Shown: one piece after another, positions 1 through 5,139 of the stretch
Layout: each line of letters begins with the position of its first letter
Position numbering within the stretch: the stretch's first letter is position 1
Notes under the pieces: generated by a model
What the model was told of the DNA's origin: nothing
The model's database searches: none
Seen by the model: only the letters and a program-made list of their open reading frames with translations
Virus record (IMG/VR): IMGVR_UViG_2751185961_000001
Location: 1-5,139 of that record
Source of the DNA: a virus
Lineage: Duplodnaviria > Heunggongvirae > Uroviricota > Caudoviricetes
Direction: 5' to 3' (one strand)
DNA length: 5,139 nt
Made by a program: the position numbers and the translations under genes

Positions 1-77
1 TCCACTTTGCAAGCGCCGCCACAAAATACCCAGCCAACAGACAACAAAAAAATCACTCCCCAGCATTAACGCATTAA

Positions 78-103
78 CCCGGCCTCAGCGCCGGGTTTTT
101 GTT
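78..103 (+). terminator. Rho-independent terminator, probably closing an upstream + strand (immunity-region) transcript
   Basis: Stem CCCGGC (78-83) pairs with GCCGGG (90-95) around a 6-nt loop, followed by TTTTTGTTG (96-104). The reverse complement has no U-tract, so it is + strand specific. Stop codons in two frames (67-69, 72-74) sit just upstream, consistent with the 3' end of a gene that starts before the window. Confidence 0.6.
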
Positions 104-312
104 GCCTGCACATAACTATCAGGACAGCACCTGCCAGCCAGCCCAAGCCTCTGATTAAATTACTATAATTCTTAATACAACTCCCATATCCCGCCATCTC
201 GTCACCACCTACTTCGCTCGTTTTTCGAACTTTTCAGCACACCATCCTGCTGTTTCCCCCGCCTTAAGTAAGCAAACCCATCGCGGGGAAAACTATTTAC
301 ACAAAAAAATCA

Positions 313-390
313 TACACATAACGTGTCACACCCTTATTTTACACATTTTGTGATTGACCATTAAATCACAATATGTGACTATTATTTCCA
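313..390 (+). promoter_or_regulatory. Putative pL-like early promoter with overlapping operator palindromes
   Basis: Candidate -35 TTGACC (355-360) and -10 TATTAT (380-385), with a rather long 19-bp spacer. A 24-bp palindrome TTGTGATT-N8-AATCACAA (348-371) overlaps the -35. A second near-palindrome TCACA-ATA-TGTGA (366-378) and a related site GTGTCACA (323-330) share the half-site TGTGAY/RTCACA. About 190 nt upstream of the N-like gene start. Confidence 0.4.
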
Positions 391-428
391 TCAGCAGGAC
401 GCTGGTAGCCAAACGGAAAAGATTGGCA

Positions 429-476
429 GGCTCTTTAAACAACGTCGAACACTCGACTACGTGGCTGAAAAGCCAG
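429..476 (+). promoter_or_regulatory. Putative nutL-like site (boxA plus candidate boxB hairpins) in the N leader
   Basis: GGCTCTTTAAACAA (429-442) resembles the boxA consensus CGCTCTTTA / rrn TGCTCTTTAACAA. Two short hairpins follow: GTCGA-ACAC-TCGAC (444-457), and TGGCT-GAAA-AGCCA (462-475), which has a purine-rich loop like lambda boxB. Position between promoter and N gene is as expected for nutL. Confidence 0.4.
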
Positions 477-573
477 ATCACCCAACCACATAAGCTGTGG
501 GATGCAATGCCGAAGCAACCGTCTCAGGAGGAGCTTCGAGATTGCATCGCCAAAGTTTATTCGGGAGGAATCT

Positions 574-846
574 ATGTCCAGAAAAACAGAATTTAAAGGC
601 ACCGCAGCTTCTCGCCGTAGAGCTCGTCGCGCAAACCTGCAAAGTCAGGAGTCGATTAGCTCCGACAAGCTACACAGGCCAACCCCTTCACGAGTGGTCT
701 TGCAATGCAAGCGCAAACCAGCAATGAGAGCAGAAGTTATAACTCTGACAACGTTGACCAGAAAATATGAAGGTTCAACTTGTCTTCCAAACGTAGCCAT
801 TTACGCTGCAGGCTACCGTAAATCCAAACAACTGACAGCAAGATGA
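574..846 (+). CDS. N: Transcription antitermination protein N (phage 21 / P22-type)
   Basis: 90-aa basic protein; ATG at 574 preceded by GGGAGG (563-568) with 5-nt spacing. N-terminal arginine-rich motif KGTAASRRRARRANL closely resembles the phage 21 N boxB-binding peptide GTAKSRYKARRAEL and the lambda/P22 N ARMs (recalled from literature). The C-terminus AIYAAGYRKSKQLTAR resembles recalled N-family C-termini. Sits just downstream of the operator/promoter and boxA-like element. The in-frame upstream ATG at 502 lacks a good RBS. Confidence 0.7.
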   Translation: MSRKTEFKGTAASRRRARRANLQSQESISSDKLHRPTPSRVVLQCKRKPAMRAEVITLTTLTRKYEGSTCLPNVAIYAAGYRKSKQLTAR

Positions 847-907
847 CTTGTGTTGGTCGCCAGAAAATGAAATTAGGCAGCAAACCACTTATTTGAGAGG
901 AATTAAT

Positions 908-1531
908 ATGTCATCAATCCGCTTAACTACGAGAATGAAAGAGGAAATCGCTCGTAACGCTTTAATTAAGTCCGGGGTGTTCACTGAACTTGAAGAAGTA
1001 ACAAAGTTAAAGAACCAGCTTGCACTTGACGCCAGAGTTATTGCGTTTGGCGGGAAAAAGAAAACCGAAGGAGTGGACCAGCTGGCATCAAAGTTAATGG
1101 CTGCAAGTGAGGAACTTCAAAAGCTGGGATGTTCATTTTACTCATGCGATGTCAGTTCATGTTCGATTTATCTGACTGTATCTGGAAGAAGGGTTGGCTG
1201 GCATTCATACGGAAAAGACGGCAACGGTGAAGATATATTGCTCCCTACCCCCGACAAAGATAAATGCATGTTTGACGCAGAACACAAAATAACAAAAAGG
1301 TTTGATGAAATCTGCGCATTGCAACAAAAACTTGAAGCCAGGAAAAAGGATATAGAATCAAACGTATGGGCTGCTTTGAACTCAGTCACAACAGTTAAGC
1401 GACTTATTGAAGTTTGGCCTGAAAGCAAAGAGTTGCTACCAAAAGAAGCAGATAAAGCAAGTGCAGCACTTCCTGCTTTACGGGTAGAAGATTTGAATAA
1501 GATGATTGGACTTCCTTCCGAGGCCGCATAA
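908..1531 (+). CDS. Hypothetical protein (207 aa) in the variable cargo slot between N and cIII; cysteine cluster C-x4-C-x4-C
   Basis: ATG at 908 with RBS GAGAGGA (895-901) at 7-nt spacing. The ORF is long and clean, and visibly more AT-rich than its neighbours. Contains GCSFYSCDVSSCSIY (Cys 75/80/85) plus His99, Cys120, His126, flanked by charged helical-looking segments. I recognise no family. Its own intrinsic terminator overlaps the stop codon. Confidence 0.6.
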   Translation: MSSIRLTTRMKEEIARNALIKSGVFTELEEVTKLKNQLALDARVIAFGGKKKTEGVDQLASKLMAASEELQKLGCSFYSCDVSSCSIYLTVSGRRVGWHSYGKDGNGEDILLPTPDKDKCMFDAEHKITKRFDEICALQQKLEARKKDIESNVWAALNSVTTVKRLIEVWPESKELLPKEADKASAALPALRVEDLNKMIGLPSEAA

Positions 1532-1546
1532 TCGGCCTTTATTTTT
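1521..1546 (+). terminator. Rho-independent terminator (tL1-like) at the end of the 207-aa gene
   Basis: Stem AGGCCG (1521-1526) pairs with CGGCCT (1533-1538); the 6-nt loop CATAAT contains the TAA stop codon (1529-1531); followed by TTTATTTTT (1538-1546). + strand specific. Confidence 0.6.
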
Positions 1547-1575
1547 GGCATAAACAACAGAATAAACACTGCACT

Positions 1576-1603
1576 GTGTATTCATTCCAACGAGTGAATA
1601 CAC
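1576..1603 (+). promoter_or_regulatory. Perfect 9-bp inverted repeat (operator-like site or RNA hairpin) in the intergenic region before cIII
   Basis: GTGTATTCA (1576-1584) and TGAATACAC (1595-1603) are exact reverse complements around a 10-nt spacer. No U-tract follows, so it is not a classical terminator. GGAG lies immediately downstream. Confidence 0.35.
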
Positions 1604-1665
1604 GGAGCAATGTCGCTCGTAACCAAACAGGAGCCGACTTGTTCTGATTATTGGAAATCTTCTTT

Positions 1666-1690
1666 GCCCTCCAGTGTGAGGGCCTTTTTA
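1666..1690 (+). terminator. Rho-independent terminator-like hairpin (tL2-like) upstream of cIII
   Basis: Stem GCCCTC (1666-1671) pairs with GAGGGC (1678-1683) around loop CAGTGT, followed by CTTTTTA (1684-1690). A weaker hairpin AACGC / GCGTT (1704-1723) followed by a T-rich run lies just after it. Confidence 0.5.
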
Positions 1691-1751
1691 TATGCATACC
1701 AATAACGCTTCACTCGAGGCGTTTTCGTTATGTATAAATAAGGAGCACACC

Positions 1752-1877
1752 ATGCAATATGCCATTGCAGGGTGGCCTGTTGCTGGCTGCCCTTCCGAAT
1801 CTTTACTTGAACGAATCACCCGTAAATTACGTGACGGATGGAAAAGAGTTGAGGTCTTATTATGCGCAATGAAATAG
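1752..1877 (+). CDS. cIII: cIII protein (FtsH inhibitor) with a short, divergent C-terminus
   Basis: 41 aa, MQYAIAGWPVAGCPSESLLERITRKLRDGWKRVEVLLCAMK. The first ~31 residues match my recollection of lambda cIII (MQYAIAGWPVAGCPSESLLERITRKLRAGWKR...) almost exactly, including the amphipathic ESLLERITRKLR core. RBS AGGAG (1741-1745) is 6 nt upstream of the ATG. Below the 60-aa cutoff of the ORF track; the listed ORF 1692..1877 is an N-terminally extended version of the same frame. Confidence 0.65.
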   Translation: MQYAIAGWPVAGCPSESLLERITRKLRDGWKRVEVLLCAMK

Positions 1878-2014
1878 CCATCAATCACCAGATGCTTCGT
1901 GCTGCACAAAACAAAGCAGTAATAGCCAGATTTATTGGTGATTCAAAAATGTGGCTTGAAGCAAATAAAGCGATGAAATCAGCTATCAACCTTCCGTGGT
2001 ATCGCAGGAAATGA
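1862..2014 (+). CDS. kil: Kil-like host cell-division inhibitor peptide (50 aa)
   Basis: ATG at 1862 overlaps the cIII 3' end by 16 nt, as kil overlaps cIII in lambda. Translation: MRNEIAINHQMLRAAQNKAVIARFIGDSKMWLEANKAMKSAINLPWYRRK. The segment IARFIGDSKMWLEA resembles my uncertain recollection of lambda Kil (…IATFIGDEKMFREA…). Size and position fit. Not in the ORF track (under 60 aa). Confidence 0.45.
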   Translation: MRNEIAINHQMLRAAQNKAVIARFIGDSKMWLEANKAMKSAINLPWYRRK

Positions 2015-2118
2015 GTTTTACAGATAACTGGTCAGACGAAGAATTCATTCGTCAGATGAACAAAATGCTCAATCAGCACAAAGAACAGGAGAAAGATGAT
2101 GATTCTGACTCTGAATGA
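2011..2118 (+). CDS. Small hypothetical protein (35 aa), acidic C-terminus
   Basis: ATG at 2011 overlaps the stop of the Kil-like ORF (ATGA), and its 3' end overlaps the next gene by 23 nt. Translation: MSFTDNWSDEEFIRQMNKMLNQHKEQEKDDDSDSE. No independent SD sequence; could be a coupled gene or spurious. Confidence 0.3.
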   Translation: MSFTDNWSDEEFIRQMNKMLNQHKEQEKDDDSDSE

Positions 2119-2407
2119 TAAGCGTGAAATATCGCAAATAATCGCAAGTTTTACTGATAAAGATTACGAACGAATCAACAGTGAAGTTGATCGCCTCTGC
2201 AAACGTTGCGACCCAATAAGCGAAATGCTTCGCTCATATAAACCAGATGAACACACTAAGGACGCTATCGACTGGCTGGAAGATGATGACTGTAACTATC
2301 AGGAAAAAGCCGCTGAATGGTTCTGGGATGCAATAACCGAAAGAGTTAAGGCTGAATATGCCTTCGCAATATTCAAACGCAGACATATTTATGGAGAAGC
2401 AGCATGA
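2096..2407 (+). CDS. Hypothetical acidic protein (103 aa), translationally coupled to recT
   Basis: ATG at 2096 with RBS AGGAG (2087-2091) at 4-nt spacing. Its stop TGA overlaps the recT start (ATGA at 2404-2407). Asp/Glu/Trp-rich (…DWLEDDDCNYQEKAAEWFWDAITERVKAEYAFAIFKRR…). Occupies the position where Gam or Abc-type RecBCD modulators sit in lambda and P22, but I see no similarity to lambda Gam. Confidence 0.6.
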   Translation: MMILTLNDKREISQIIASFTDKDYERINSEVDRLCKRCDPISEMLRSYKPDEHTKDAIDWLEDDDCNYQEKAAEWFWDAITERVKAEYAFAIFKRRHIYGEAA

Positions 2408-3315
2408 GCAATATCGTTGAATTCGTTAAACAGCAAGAGCAGTTATTCTGCGGAGCATTGACTGAACAGACGGTGACATGGGCTAAGGAAAGCCAGTTTG
2501 CAATTCAGTATTTCCAGAAAAACGATTACCTGGCTAAAACAGCACTGGCAAATCCAACCAGCGCACAGAACGCCATCATCAATGTTGCGGCGATCGGAAT
2601 CACCTTAAACCCGGCCAGCAAACTTGCTTATCTAGTTCCGCGCGACGGCATTGTTTGCCTTGATATCAGCTATATGGGATTGCTCCATATTGCAATGGAG
2701 TCTGGTGTTATCTCATGGGGTCAGGCAAAACTTGTTCATGCTAACGATACCTATGAGTCAAACGGGCTTGATAAATCACCAACCCATAAATACAACGCCT
2801 TCGGTGATCGTGGTGATATCGTTGGCGTTTACTGCACAGTTAAGACGCCAGCAGGTGATTATCTAACGGAAGAGATGAGTCTGGCTGAAATTGAGGCTGT
2901 AAGGAAAACAAGCAAGGCAGCATTCAGCGATAAAGGACCATGGGTAAATCACTGGAATGAGATGGCACGAAAGACGGTCGTAAAGCGTGCAAGCAAGTAT
3001 TGGCCTAAGGCATCACGTCTTGATAGTGCTATTCACGTACTAAACGAAGAAGAAGGTGTATGGACTGAACCAGTTATGCCGCACAAATCAGAGGAAGATA
3101 TCCGCGAAGATGAACGGAAACGCCAGCAGGAAATAATGGATAAAGCACAACTTCTTTGCGATGAAATGGCTCAGGCAGAAAACATGGATGATTTGAAGCG
3201 ATATTTTGCAGAAGCATATCGCCTGACATCTGGAATGAAATTGCAGCAGAACGTACAAGCCATTTACATAGAATGCAAAGCGAAACTGGAGGTTGCCAGT
3301 GAGCAAACTGTATGA
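2404..3315 (+). CDS. recT: RecT-family single-strand annealing recombinase
   Basis: 303 aa; RBS GGAG 9 nt upstream. The segment GPWVNHWNEMARKTVVKRASKYWP closely matches the E. coli Rac RecT segment GPWVTHWEEMAKKTAIRRLFKYLP (recalled), and the N-terminal half has the RecT-like layout. Confidence 0.85.
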   Translation: MSNIVEFVKQQEQLFCGALTEQTVTWAKESQFAIQYFQKNDYLAKTALANPTSAQNAIINVAAIGITLNPASKLAYLVPRDGIVCLDISYMGLLHIAMESGVISWGQAKLVHANDTYESNGLDKSPTHKYNAFGDRGDIVGVYCTVKTPAGDYLTEEMSLAEIEAVRKTSKAAFSDKGPWVNHWNEMARKTVVKRASKYWPKASRLDSAIHVLNEEEGVWTEPVMPHKSEEDIREDERKRQQEIMDKAQLLCDEMAQAENMDDLKRYFAEAYRLTSGMKLQQNVQAIYIECKAKLEVASEQTV

Positions 3316-3781
3316 AATAGCCAATGAATACGCAAAGCTGATGGATTCAGATTTAGAGCCAGAGATGATTGCTGACACAATAGAAGGCATGGAAGGAGAA
3401 TTTACCGATAAAATAGAGCAACTTCTTGCCATTATTAAAAATGAATCTGGTTATGCTGAACGCCTCAAGGACGAGGCAAAGTCACTGAATGAACGAGCAG
3501 CAGTAATTCAAAATAAGATTGATAGCATTATGGCATATATAGCGTCATCGCTTGAAATGGTTGGCAAGAAAAAGATTCGAGCAGGTATTCACCAGGTAAC
3601 AATCCGCAAACCGTCAGAAACTGTAGAAATCATCGACTCAAGCGCCATTCCTCCTGAATACGTTGAGTTTGAAACGACAATTAAAGCCGACAAGTTGGCA
3701 ATCAAGCACCAACTAAAAGCAGGAATAAATATCCCAGGTGCTCAAATCAAGGTTGGGAAACCTTCACTTCTTATCAAATAA
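3299..3781 (+). CDS. Siphovirus Gp157-family protein
   Basis: The frame is open from 3293 (TTG); the best start is GTG at 3299, with GGAGG (3288-3292) 6 nt upstream. It overlaps the recT 3' end by 17 nt. Landmarks (N-terminal KLYEIANEY, central GKKKIRAG, C-terminal IPPEYVEF) match my recollection of the Sipho_Gp157 family, which typically sits next to RecT/Erf/Sak recombinases. Confidence 0.65.
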   Translation: MSKLYEIANEYAKLMDSDLEPEMIADTIEGMEGEFTDKIEQLLAIIKNESGYAERLKDEAKSLNERAAVIQNKIDSIMAYIASSLEMVGKKKIRAGIHQVTIRKPSETVEIIDSSAIPPEYVEFETTIKADKLAIKHQLKAGINIPGAQIKVGKPSLLIK

Positions 3782-3792
3782 CGGTATCGCCT

Positions 3793-4107
3793 ATGAAAAA
3801 GACTCCATGGGAGAAATGGGAAGTCGATTTCTTGCGCGAAGTAGCGGCGACAATGCCAGTTGAAGTTATCGCTGAAAAACTGGAAAGGACTGAAAAAGCA
3901 GTAATGGCGAAAGCAACAAGGATTGGCGCTGACATTGTTAGCCGACTTCGTGGAAGACGATGGACAAGAGCCGAAGTATCACTTTTCGGTAAGTTCTCCG
4001 CAGAAGAAATAGCAATTGCAACCTGCCGCTCAATTTATTCAGTAAGAGCTATGCGATACAAGCTAAAAAAACTCGATGAAGAAAGAGCAGGCATACGAAT
4101 AAATTAA
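3793..4107 (+). CDS. Hypothetical protein (104 aa) with two tandem helix-turn-helix-like repeats
   Basis: Internal duplication: WEKWEVDFLREVAATMPVEVIAEKLERTEKAVMAKATRIG versus RRWTRAEVSLFGKFSAEEIAIATCRSIYSVRAMRYKLKKL. Both follow the pattern W-x2-E-x2-L…E(V/I)IA…R(T/S)…AV, reminiscent of SANT/Myb-type helix-turn-helix repeats. Weak SD. Confidence 0.55.
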   Translation: MKKTPWEKWEVDFLREVAATMPVEVIAEKLERTEKAVMAKATRIGADIVSRLRGRRWTRAEVSLFGKFSAEEIAIATCRSIYSVRAMRYKLKKLDEERAGIRIN

Positions 4108-4123
4108 CATGGGGTAATTAACA

Positions 4124-4405
4124 ATGAAGCTAAACATCGACCTCGGAAAATACGTTATTACCGGAACCAAACACGACCTGATTCTTAGCGAAAGAGGAAT
4201 TATCAAAGAAGGCGAGAATGCAGGGAAAGAAACACTAAGTCGTATCGGTTATTACAGCAAGTTTGAGCATCTGGTTAAAGAGTTATGCAACCGTGAAATC
4301 CTGTTATCTCAGGCGCAGACGCTACAGGATATTCAGCAGCATATCGAAACTTTAGGTATGTCACTTAGCATGGCTATTGACCAGTTCGTTGAGAGTAAAT
4401 CATGA
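4124..4405 (+). CDS. Hypothetical protein (93 aa)
   Basis: ATG at 4124 with GGGG 9 nt upstream; clean ORF. Its stop overlaps the next start (ATGA at 4402-4405). No family recognised. Confidence 0.5.
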
Positions 4406-4566
4406 GAGGACTTGCATACAATCCCGGCATTCTTCCGGCAGAAATGATTATTCGCCAACGCGTAAAGCCAATGCCATCGAGAGAGGAATTGCTTAAGAGA
4501 AATTCTTTTCCATCAGTAAATCAAAACAAATATCTGAATGCGATGTTGCGGAGTGGGAAGAAATGA
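4402..4566 (+). CDS. Small hypothetical protein (54 aa), translationally coupled on both sides
   Basis: ATG at 4402 overlaps the upstream stop; its TGA at 4564-4566 overlaps the ATG of the next gene at 4563-4565. Translation: [54 protein letters not shown]. Not in the ORF track (under 60 aa). Confidence 0.4.
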
Positions 4567-5048
4567 AACAAATGTCACTAATTGAGATGGATGGATTTCT
4601 GAAAGGTAAATGCATCCCCCGAGATTTAAAGGTTAACGAAACAAACGCTGAATATCTTGTCCGTAAGTTCGGTGAACTTGAATCAAAACTAGAAACGGCG
4701 TTGCGGGAGTGTCGTTCTTCTGGAATCACGATTGATAACCTTGAGGCCAAGTGCGCGGCGCTGGCAGCGGAGAGTGCGGGGATGAAGAAGTTCTGCAAAG
4801 ACGCTGCATTCGATGCCGATTACGAAGCAGAGCTAGGTATGGAGCGTGGTGGATTCAGTGATGCGCTTAACGAAATCAAAACCCCAGCCACCGATGCTTT
4901 CCTGGCTGAAATTGAACGCAAAGCAATCCGCAAGTTTATTAACAGCATTGAACACATCCTGCGTGACAAGCTGTCACCGTATGACACCGAAGAGATGCTT
5001 GAGGCTATGCGTATTTTTCTGGAAGAACAGGGAGTTGAGCAAAAATGA
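4563..5048 (+). CDS. Hypothetical protein (161 aa), predicted helical / coiled-coil
   Basis: ATG at 4563 with GGAG 9 nt upstream. Charged, Ala/Glu/Leu-rich sequence. Its stop overlaps the next start (ATGA at 5045-5048). Possibly an early-region Ea-type accessory protein, but that is a guess from position only. Confidence 0.55.
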
Positions 5049-5139
5049 CGATCACAAAACAACGAGTAGAAAAAATCATATATCGCCATGAAATGGGACT
5101 GAACAGCGATGTCACTGCCGAAGAGGTTTATGACCTGGC
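5045..5139 (+). CDS. Hypothetical protein, 5' fragment (continues past the window end)
   Basis: ATG at 5045 overlaps the upstream stop. The frame stays open to the window edge ([31 protein letters not shown]…). Confidence 0.4.
   Translation, partial: MTITKQRVEKIIYRHEMGLNSDVTAEEVYDL

Follow-up and report, generated by a model that had tools for sequence, protein, structure and literature searches.

The subject of this work is the distal end of a 5,139-nucleotide stretch of viral DNA (positions 1 to 5,139 of the IMG/VR record IMGVR_UViG_2751185961_000001, Caudoviricetes; hereafter the window), i.e., a 1.35-kb block of five consecutive open reading frames (ORFs) encoded on the plus strand downstream of a recombination (Rec) module. 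The block consists of ORF1 (3793..4107, 104 amino acids), ORF2 (4124..4405, 93 amino acids), ORF3 (4402..4566, 54 amino acids), ORF4 (4563..5048, 161 amino acids), and ORF5 (5045..5139), the latter represented by a 31-codon 5' fragment cut by the window end. An original prediction, made from the nucleotide sequence alone, described this block as a translationally coupled chain of genes without recognisable family. Its coordinates, sizes, strand, and three ATGA overlaps were all confirmed in the sequence, but the families turned out to be recognisable: ORF2 falls into DUF5405 and ORF3 into DUF2737, all five ORFs have matches in PHROG, and ORF4 is homologous to the EaE/Oad2 proteins, one of which inhibits the OLD defence nuclease. 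The region is an ordinary, already named kind of phage genome segment, and ORF2 and ORF3 lie in known domains. It is probably an assemblage of independent accessory genes of the early-left operon of a lambdoid prophage, with ORF4 as a candidate counter-defence protein.

The five genes and their families

The stop/start overlaps of the ATGA type, read from the sequence, are situated at 4402-4405, 4563-4566, and 5045-5048. They are accompanied by Shine–Dalgarno-like purine stretches found 8–15 nucleotides 5' of the starts: GAGAG for ORF3, GGAG/GGGAAG for ORF4, and GGGAG for ORF5. Judging by the sequence, this combination of an overlap and a Shine–Dalgarno element within the preceding gene is that of a translationally coupled operon. 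At the same time, four-base overlaps are common along the operon and in its relatives (e.g., at 2404-2407 in the window and at many sites in the loci L003-L008, prophages harboring an exact copy of ORF4), and are therefore not special to the ORF1–ORF5 block. A scan of positions 3200-5139 revealed no promoter-like or terminator-like sites inside the block, the two reported sites being located at ~3285-3401. The antisense ORFs at 4493-4798 and 4820-5089 matched no phage family.

The ratio of nonsynonymous to synonymous polymorphism (pN/pS), estimated against related loci, was 0.06 for ORF1, 0.07 for ORF2, 0.30 for ORF3, and 0.14 for codons 1-65 of ORF4; a shifted-frame reading of the same alignments gave values of 1.05-1.94. 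Since the ratio is low in frame and at least 1.05 in the shifted frames, these ORFs are real genes. Purifying selection acts on ORF1–ORF3 and on the N-terminal part of ORF4, the estimate covering exactly these regions, since there were no variant sequences for codons 66-161 of ORF4 and for ORF5. As for the families, PHROG matches were found for all five ORFs, NCBIfam yielded none, and a comparison of all the proteins with the PADLOC defence-system models returned 0 matches at E <= 0.01.

ORF4 encodes an acidic protein (isoelectric point, pI, 4.9) matching PHROG 614 with E 6e-60. With BLASTP, it aligns over its whole length with gp27 of phage HK446 (E 6e-63, 57% identity over 168 positions). 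The latter protein, named Oad2, was recovered from a genomic library and is alone sufficient against the toxicity of, and the defence by, P2 OLD; it binds OLD directly, inhibits it, and is related to P22 EaE (bioRxiv 10.64898/2026.07.10.737580). Fusions of Oad2 with HNH proteins were noted in the same work (bioRxiv 10.64898/2026.07.10.737580). The mapping of Oad2 onto gp27 was checked by comparison of HK446 gp27 with HK75 gp28, which gave 53.9% identity (54% in the paper). A placement of Oad2 at the position of ORF5, as would follow from HK75 gp27 standing after an EaE-type gene, was rejected on the grounds of the HK446 numbering and the same 53.9% identity. The gene order in HK446, i.e., abc2 (gp30), DUF5405 (gp29), DUF2737 (gp28), and gp27, is the window order ORF2–ORF3–ORF4.

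The similarity of ORF4 to its relatives is distributed unevenly along the protein. Residues 1-75 are ~93% identical to Oad2 and represent a family-wide N-terminal module, which is found joined to many different C-termini. The motif at residues 107-116 ([10 protein letters not shown]) is kept in 7/7 aligned family members, including P22 EaE and ES18 gp43, the sole change being P-to-T at its second residue, seen in HK140 gp36. The C-terminal 55 residues share 43% identity with Oad2 across 49 positions; when compared with the HK75/HK140 type, of which the HK75 protein is inactive, the C-terminus of ORF4 aligns only across the motif. The similarity to P22 EaE amounts to 44% identity over 62 residues. 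An exact copy of ORF4 is present on 84 contigs, and searches of the PDB with the single sequence and with a profile found nothing significant. By these comparisons, ORF4 can be assigned to the EaE/Oad2 family as a new, divergent member, which may, with some uncertainty, possess anti-OLD activity.

ORF2 is a marginal member of Pfam DUF5405 (25.8 bits vs. the 21.6 threshold, E 1.5e-5, model positions 6-78 of 88), and DUF5405 is also the RefSeq name for the protein identical to it. It also matches PHROG 154 and has counterparts in Sf6 (gp24), ES18 (gp45), HK140 (gp38), and HK446 (gp29). The label of PHROG 154, “Replication initiation protein”, was rejected, as ORF2 displays no similarity to any characterised replication initiator. 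The mildly acidic protein has the fold of a four-stranded beta-meander with a helical hairpin. Its single cysteine (residue 55 of 93, in KELCNRE) is kept in most relatives and replaced with M or F in some of them; the conserved cysteine in the Pfam description of DUF5405 is C-terminal, and that of ORF2 is not near the C-terminus.

ORF3 spans the entire Pfam DUF2737 model (positions 1-53 of 53, E 3.4e-32, 110.5 bits vs. 25). It is 77% identical to P22 ORF56, with further counterparts in HK97 (gp38) and HK446 (gp28), is very basic (pI 11), and carries a conserved R-[ND]-S-F-P motif. In several loci, HNH endonuclease genes split DUF2737 into two annotated pieces or directly follow it (L002 5610-6398, an E. 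coli JX2 prophage; L100 7026-7451; L097 6461-6967), which fits the activity of homing endonucleases at the DUF2737 module junction. No functional study of DUF2737 or DUF5405 was found in the literature. The supplements of an accessory-gene screen list both as neighbourhood annotations only, not as tested genes (PMC12373910).

The fragment of ORF5 matches PHROG 3126 (E 3.7e-12), as do its full-length relatives of 99-105 amino acids (E 1e-62 to 1e-67). The relatives are strongly acidic, with pI 4.1-4.2 and a net charge of -13 to -17 in ~100 residues, and carry a CDS[CF]GQDCG motif (L099 8396-8713, L100 7448-7747, L003 10483-10788). In its composition only, this acidity is reminiscent of DNA-mimic anti-restriction proteins. 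An Ead/Ea22-like gene follows the ORF5-type gene directly in L003-L008 and PhiR12_1, and one gene later in Nord1.

Assortment of the genes across prophages

The neighbourhoods of the block were compared in 80 viral contigs selected by ORF2, in 7 species-representative genomes (with ORF2 61-96% identical), and in 80 contigs selected by ORF1. The contigs are the top-scoring 80 per query, mostly closely related E. coli prophages, and the counts are descriptive, not phylogenetically independent. In the ORF2-selected loci, ORF3 is the next gene in 80/80, with the identical 4-base-overlap offset in 78. ORF1 is present in ~10/80 of these loci, the ORF4-type N-terminus in ~45/80, the C-terminal type of ORF4 in 7/80, and the ORF5 type in 3/80. 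Over the 80 contigs and 7 species genomes together, ORF2 is preceded by abc2 in 73/87 loci and by Gp157 (plus ORF1) in 9/87. In the species genomes, a DUF2737-like gene follows ORF2 in 6/7, the remaining one (Citrobacter, L098) having a TraR-like gene instead.

The ORF1-selected loci present a complementary picture: ORF3 is located downstream in 71/71, ORF2 is present in just 33/71, and an Oad2-type N-terminus comes after ORF3 in 40/71. In the 38/71 loci where ORF2 is absent, ORF3 begins ~17 nucleotides after ORF1 and has a Shine–Dalgarno sequence of its own, AGAGGA. Since the ORF1-to-ORF3 arrangement without ORF2 is common, metagenomic gene calls joining ORF1 and the DUF2737 domain in one product are encountered as well (P0002, P0035). 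In P22, HK75, and the prophages harboring the exact copy of ORF4 (L003-L008), DUF2737 directly follows abc2, in the absence of ORF1 and ORF2. The genes abutting ORF3 are of over a dozen unrelated types, including Ead/Ea22-type genes and HNH endonucleases. The block is a mosaic in which each gene is an exchangeable module; of all the genes in the region, ORF3 is the most constant. Gene-neighbourhood conservation, which had been proposed as a check along with the original prediction, holds for the linkage of ORF1 to RecT-Gp157 (see below) and for the presence of ORF3; it does not hold for a fixed set of genes.

This mosaic bears directly on the suggestion that the overlapping stop and start codons imply stoichiometric co-expression, i.e., that the products of the four or five coupled genes form a single complex or work as a single system for host takeover or anti-defence. 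Three consecutive ATGA overlaps agree with such a system, as do the adjacency of ORF2 and ORF3 in all 80 close loci (78 of them with the same offset) and in 6/7 divergent species, and the complementary charges of the products (pI 11 for ORF3, 4.9 for ORF4, and 4.1 for the ORF5 family). The co-occurrence counts for ORF1, ORF2, the ORF4 C-terminal type, and the ORF5 type speak against it; moreover, ORF3 exists without ORF2 in P22, HK75, and L003-L008, and many unrelated genes adjoin it in just this way. Since the genes assort independently, ORF3 can have its own Shine–Dalgarno sequence, and Oad2 acts alone, the overlaps, which are a general feature of the operon, are best regarded as a sign of compact packing, not of a stoichiometric complex. 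A single complex is, overall, highly improbable; translational coupling at the joints of the modules is possible.

A narrower version of the same idea confines the interaction to ORF2 (DUF5405) and ORF3 (DUF2737) as a functional pair, e.g., a heterodimer, or an effector and a protein that modulates it, the remaining genes being independent. A DUF2737-like gene stands directly after ORF2 not only in the 80 close loci but also in 6/7 species, where ORF2 identity is down to 61-71%, and in L186/L187, and a mildly acidic ORF2 would match a strongly basic ORF3. Still, ORF3 is widespread without ORF2, and the Citrobacter locus L098 manages with the TraR-like gene after ORF2, so the dependence is at most one-sided. 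Such a pair is unlikely, though it deserves consideration: this one-sided association of ORF2 with ORF3 is the sole association in the block worth testing.

The ubiquity of ORF3 might also reflect a role at the level of DNA, as a conserved linker where modules recombine, more than the function of a protein. The gene content starts to vary precisely downstream of ORF3; of the four genes compared, ORF3 is the least constrained (see its pN/pS above), and it is one into which HNH homing-endonuclease genes insert. On the other hand, its pN/pS is well below 1 and contrasts with the values in the shifted frames, R-[ND]-S-F-P is kept in relatives of ~45-60% identity, whose DNA can no longer be aligned, and Pfam DUF2737 is defined on the protein. 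Taken together, these arguments render a predominantly DNA-level role improbable.

ORF1 and the recombination module

ORF1 encodes a basic protein (pI 10), which is the same as HK140 gp39. The two tandem SANT/Myb-like helix-turn-helix (HTH) repeats originally predicted in it were recovered as two three-helix units at residues 6-45 and 57-97, with the third helix as the recognition helix, and this fold lends support to the notion of a probable nucleic-acid binder. The family is narrow (51 clusters, all of them enterobacterial), and its relatives of ~152 amino acids hold a third copy of the unit. An exhaustive profile search with ORF1 retrieved 1,979 proteins, many of them 300-900 amino acids long and with up to 9 matched stretches; in several of these array proteins, Pfam recognizes Myb_DNA-binding, GcrA, or Sigma70_r4_2. 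Long tandem arrays of the ORF1 HTH unit thus occur in ~2,000 proteins (e.g., P0279, P0280, P0287, P0292, P0305), and an 807-amino-acid example combines a ResIII/Helicase_C helicase with nine near-identical “PWTQEEDxFLxQNY..KEIAEHLGRS” repeats.

The link of ORF1 to Myb domains is transitive only: the ORF1 profile finds P0279 (E 2e-31), which in turn matches PF00249 (E 2e-41) over 7 stretches, and Pfam Myb_DNA-binding (PF00249) run on ORF1 itself gives no match at E <= 1. A hidden Markov model (HMM) of the unit, built from four repeat arrays, matches residues 6-45 end-to-end (E 7e-11). A direct comparison of the two repeats of ORF1 with hhalign gave P 0.003. Unlike canonical Myb repeats, which have three evenly spaced tryptophans, each ORF1 unit retains only the first one (W6/W9, W57), with I, A, or V at the later positions. 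As compared with GcrA, ORF1 contains a fold resembling the DNA-binding domain (DBD) twice and lacks the sigma-70-interacting domain, as no further domain is present in its 104 residues. ORF1 is like the HTHs of sigma-70 region 4 and of the LuxR type to about the same degree as it is like those of GcrA and Myb, and PDB sequence searches with the single sequence and the profile returned nothing significant (the best hit was the NarL HTH, E 0.022). The appropriate label is a Myb/SANT-like, GcrA-DBD-like HTH in two copies, the second being degenerate, and ORF1 belongs to an undescribed, clearly Myb-like family of small proteins.

The genomic position of ORF1 is constant. It starts 11 nucleotides after the gene of a Siphovirus Gp157/MuGam-type protein (3293/3299-3781, plus strand; Pfam Sipho_Gp157 E 1.3e-36; PHROG 253, “Mu Gam-like end protection”) and is without a good Shine–Dalgarno sequence; the Gp157 gene is preceded by RecT (2404-3315, plus strand; Pfam RecT E 1.5e-31). 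RecT and Gp157 are found upstream of ORF1 in 79/79 ORF1-selected loci, and in this sample ORF1 never occurs without RecT-Gp157. The Rec module of the window is of the HK140 type, i.e., RecT with the Siphovirus Gp157/MuGam-type protein; HK140 itself has been classed as SAP-4 + MuGam (PMC12315714).

Distant two-repeat relatives of ORF1 (51% identity and lower) follow another Rec module, comprising a RecE-like exonuclease and a PHROG 11517 protein. In L185-L188, these relatives are placed just before DUF2737 (or DUF5405 and DUF2737), followed by an EaE-type gene where the contig reaches; in L183/L184, an Oad2-type N-terminus directly follows the ORF1 relative, without DUF2737. The RecE-like exonuclease of these loci (L185 2611-4841, L183 1-1798) belongs to PHROG 412/DUF3799, and the PHROG 11517 protein of 189-199 amino acids may be the end-protection or annealing partner in this type of Rec module. 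A Citrobacter sp. prophage (L098 4680-6482) displays the order RecT, Gp157, a three-repeat ORF1 relative (152 amino acids), a 251-amino-acid gene, ORF2, and a TraR-type gene; the product of the latter, a TraR/DksA-type zinc-finger protein of 73 amino acids resembling lambda Orf73, replaces DUF2737.

A parallel to ORF1 is offered by P22 Abc1. The C-terminal half of Abc1 (L090 4366-4650; [44 protein letters not shown]) forms a Myb/sigma-70-region-4-like HTH similar to the ORF1 repeats, scoring 27 bits with Sigma70_r4_2 (above the threshold), 17 bits with Myb, and E 6e-5 with the unit HMM. Abc1 has been noted to contain an HTH, to trigger a P4-dependent death response, and to have host-dependent phenotypes; it aids recombination by a mechanism that is unexplained (PMC12315714). 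Abc1 and ORF1 are both small basic proteins encoded in a Rec locus; they have the HTH type in common and are invariably linked to a Rec module. The differences are that Abc1 has one HTH unit and ORF1 two, that abc1 precedes abc2 and ORF1 follows Gp157, and that a direct comparison of Abc1 with the ORF1 profile is not significant (E 0.26). From its position and fold only, the most economical guess for ORF1 is a DNA-binding accessory of the Rec module.

A bolder generalization would make ORF1 representative of a class of small tandem GcrA/Myb-like DNA binders integral to phage Rec modules (RecT with MuGam, or the RecE-like exonuclease with PHROG 11517, with P22 Abc1 in Erf + Abc2 as a single-unit analogue) and directing or regulating recombination or end-protection. 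The nearly ubiquitous DUF2737 peptide beside the anti-RecBCD gene would be a possible second counter-measure against the immune sensors of RecBCD inhibition. In this extended form, the idea is speculative and rather unlikely.

The operon and the place of the block in it

The surroundings of the block point to an early-left (P_L) operon. A lambda cIII thermoregulator RNA was predicted at 1739-1797 on the plus strand (Rfam RF01804, 88.5 bits vs. the gathering score of 50), just before and into a cIII-like ORF (1692/1752-1877), which is followed by a Kil-like ORF (1862-2014); this predicted RNA marks the window as a P_L operon. A gene of 103 amino acids upstream of RecT overlaps the latter by four bases at 2404-2407. 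The window also contains, at 908-1531 on the plus strand, a gene for a 207-amino-acid Nmad5 protein (“nucleotide modification associated domain 5”; full-length PF18757 domain, E 5e-68; PHROG 1965), placed between the N region and cIII. This position is occupied by ral, sieB, or other morons in other lambdoid phages.

The DNA of the window is ~95-97% identical, in mosaic pieces, to the early-left regions of lambdoid and P22-like phages, the matching phages including HK140, mEpX1, Kapi1, PhiR12, and Stx phages. Part or all of the 1.35-kb block was matched in 1,562 of 5,426 complete E. coli genomes, and at least 80% of it was covered in only 4 of the 5,426. In the relatives, the operon extends as far as xis and int, with Ead/Ea22-like, DUF551, and further small genes in between. 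The block is the start of the accessory segment called “ea” in P22 and “exo-xis” in lambda, as had been expected from its resemblance to an accessory early block between the recombination genes and xis/int. The prophages with the exact copy of ORF4 carry additional accessory or defence cargo in the same operon (L003 4805-5851, 13409-16757): a Ser/Thr-kinase-like protein is encoded beside cI, and the ea region holds genes for an MT-A70 methyltransferase, a DUF4145 protein, and a toxin-antitoxin pair of the RelE/HTH type.

It is likely, in our opinion, that the block comes from a lambdoid E. coli prophage and represents the proximal part of the non-essential accessory genes in its N-antiterminated P_L operon: a run of independent, exchangeable genes with ORF4 as an Oad2/EaE counter-defence protein, ORF1 as a Rec-linked DNA binder, and ORF2, ORF3, and ORF5 as small accessory proteins. 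The block would be transcribed as one early message directly after the HK140-type Rec module, with the genes tightly juxtaposed and ribosomes able to pass between the cistrons at the stop/start overlaps. ORF4 would bind and block an abortive-infection nuclease of the OLD type (ABC ATPase plus TOPRIM) or a related sensor of RecBCD inhibition, which the anti-RecBCD function of the phage itself would otherwise trigger; by homology, its specificity can be placed in the variable central and C-terminal part. ORF1 would be a sequence- or structure-specific DNA binder and, considering its fold and linkage, may work with the Rec module like P22 Abc1. Because ORF2, ORF3, and ORF5 hold a constant position beside the anti-RecBCD gene, a role of these proteins in the host-recombination/immunity conflict may be suggested. 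The gene order agrees with that in P22 (abc2-ORF56-eaE...), ES18, and HK446 (abc2-gp29-gp28-gp27). The expectation that such a block would host anti-defence functions seems to be borne out by the homology of ORF4 to the anti-OLD protein Oad2.

Several observations weigh against this explanation. ORF4 is just 57% identical to Oad2, its central segment (residues 76-106) is unique, and it is without the terminal QLRKGxxQ tail common to other family members. Since the specificity of Oad2 is narrow and ORF4 diverges from it in the centre and the tail, the target of ORF4 may differ. P2 OLD is not inhibited by the homologue from HK75, which shares 54% identity with Oad2 (bioRxiv 10.64898/2026.07.10.737580); therefore, homology alone is no guarantee of anti-OLD activity. 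ORF1 itself has no Pfam match above the threshold, GcrA included, the unit HMM on its degenerate second repeat (residues 57-86) is in register but weak (E 0.6), and only its position links ORF1 to recombination. Neither structure nor sequence gives a clue to the activity of ORF2 and ORF3, and PDB searches with ORF2 (single sequence and profile) found nothing significant. To these points, the close relatedness of the sampled loci should be added.

Alternatively, the genes could be modulators of the lysis–lysogeny decision like the lambda exo-xis genes, not counter-defence genes. The exo-xis genes affect lysogenisation and induction, Ea22 being pro-lysogenic and Orf60a/61/63 and Ea8.5 pro-lytic (PMC7093339, PMC3824215). 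The block occupies the same genomic niche, would be expressed early, and has Ead/Ea22-like genes just downstream in its relatives; in addition, ORF1 is a plausible transcription factor. Against this, sequence similarity to lambda exo-xis proteins is missing: BLASTP of lambda Ea22, Ea8.5, Orf60a, Orf61, and Orf63 against the five ORFs gave nothing better than E 2.9, and Pfam Ead_Ea22 has no match among them. Furthermore, Oad2, the sole family member with a tested function, is a defence inhibitor. A lysis–lysogeny role is, hence, quite unlikely, and the preferred explanation is still that of an accessory segment with a counter-defence protein.

The comparison with known systems defines what is ordinary and what is peculiar in the block. 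The exo-xis region of lambda (orf60a, orf63, orf61, orf73, ea22, ea8.5) fills the equivalent niche between Rec and xis with small, non-essential genes under early N-dependent expression, but none of the five ORFs is detectably similar to it in sequence. The ea region of P22 (abc2-ORF56-eaE-ORF45-eaF-eaD-eaI-eaA-eaG-eaC-xis-int) is closer, as it belongs to the same operon and position and includes the same DUF2737 gene (77% identity), then an EaE-type gene, with overlapping junctions. At the same time, P22 is without the ORF1, ORF2, and ORF5 types, and the common ground of EaE and ORF4 is limited to the central motif region (the 62 residues mentioned above). The strict linkage of ORF1 to the Rec module, together with the HTH type it has in common with P22 Abc1, gives rise to a testable idea about the role of Abc1-like accessory recombination proteins. 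The DUF2737 and DUF5405 genes, in turn, occur very widely among the prophages of E. coli and Salmonella and among Stx prophages, within a recognised anti-defence hotspot beside the anti-RecBCD gene.

The closest parallel is that of ORF4 with Oad2: both are acidic, have the same N-terminal module, the motif, and an Oad2-type C-terminal segment, and their genes occupy the same place at the distal end of the Rec locus, with DUF2737 immediately upstream. They differ in the central 30 residues, which are unrelated in ORF4, in the QLRKGxxQ tail missing from ORF4, and in the upstream Rec module, which is RecT + Gp157 + ORF1 in the window and Erf + Abc2 for Oad2. With its Oad2-type C-terminus and a different centre, ORF4 would be a natural specificity variant of Oad2, useful for mapping the recognition of OLD-type nucleases.

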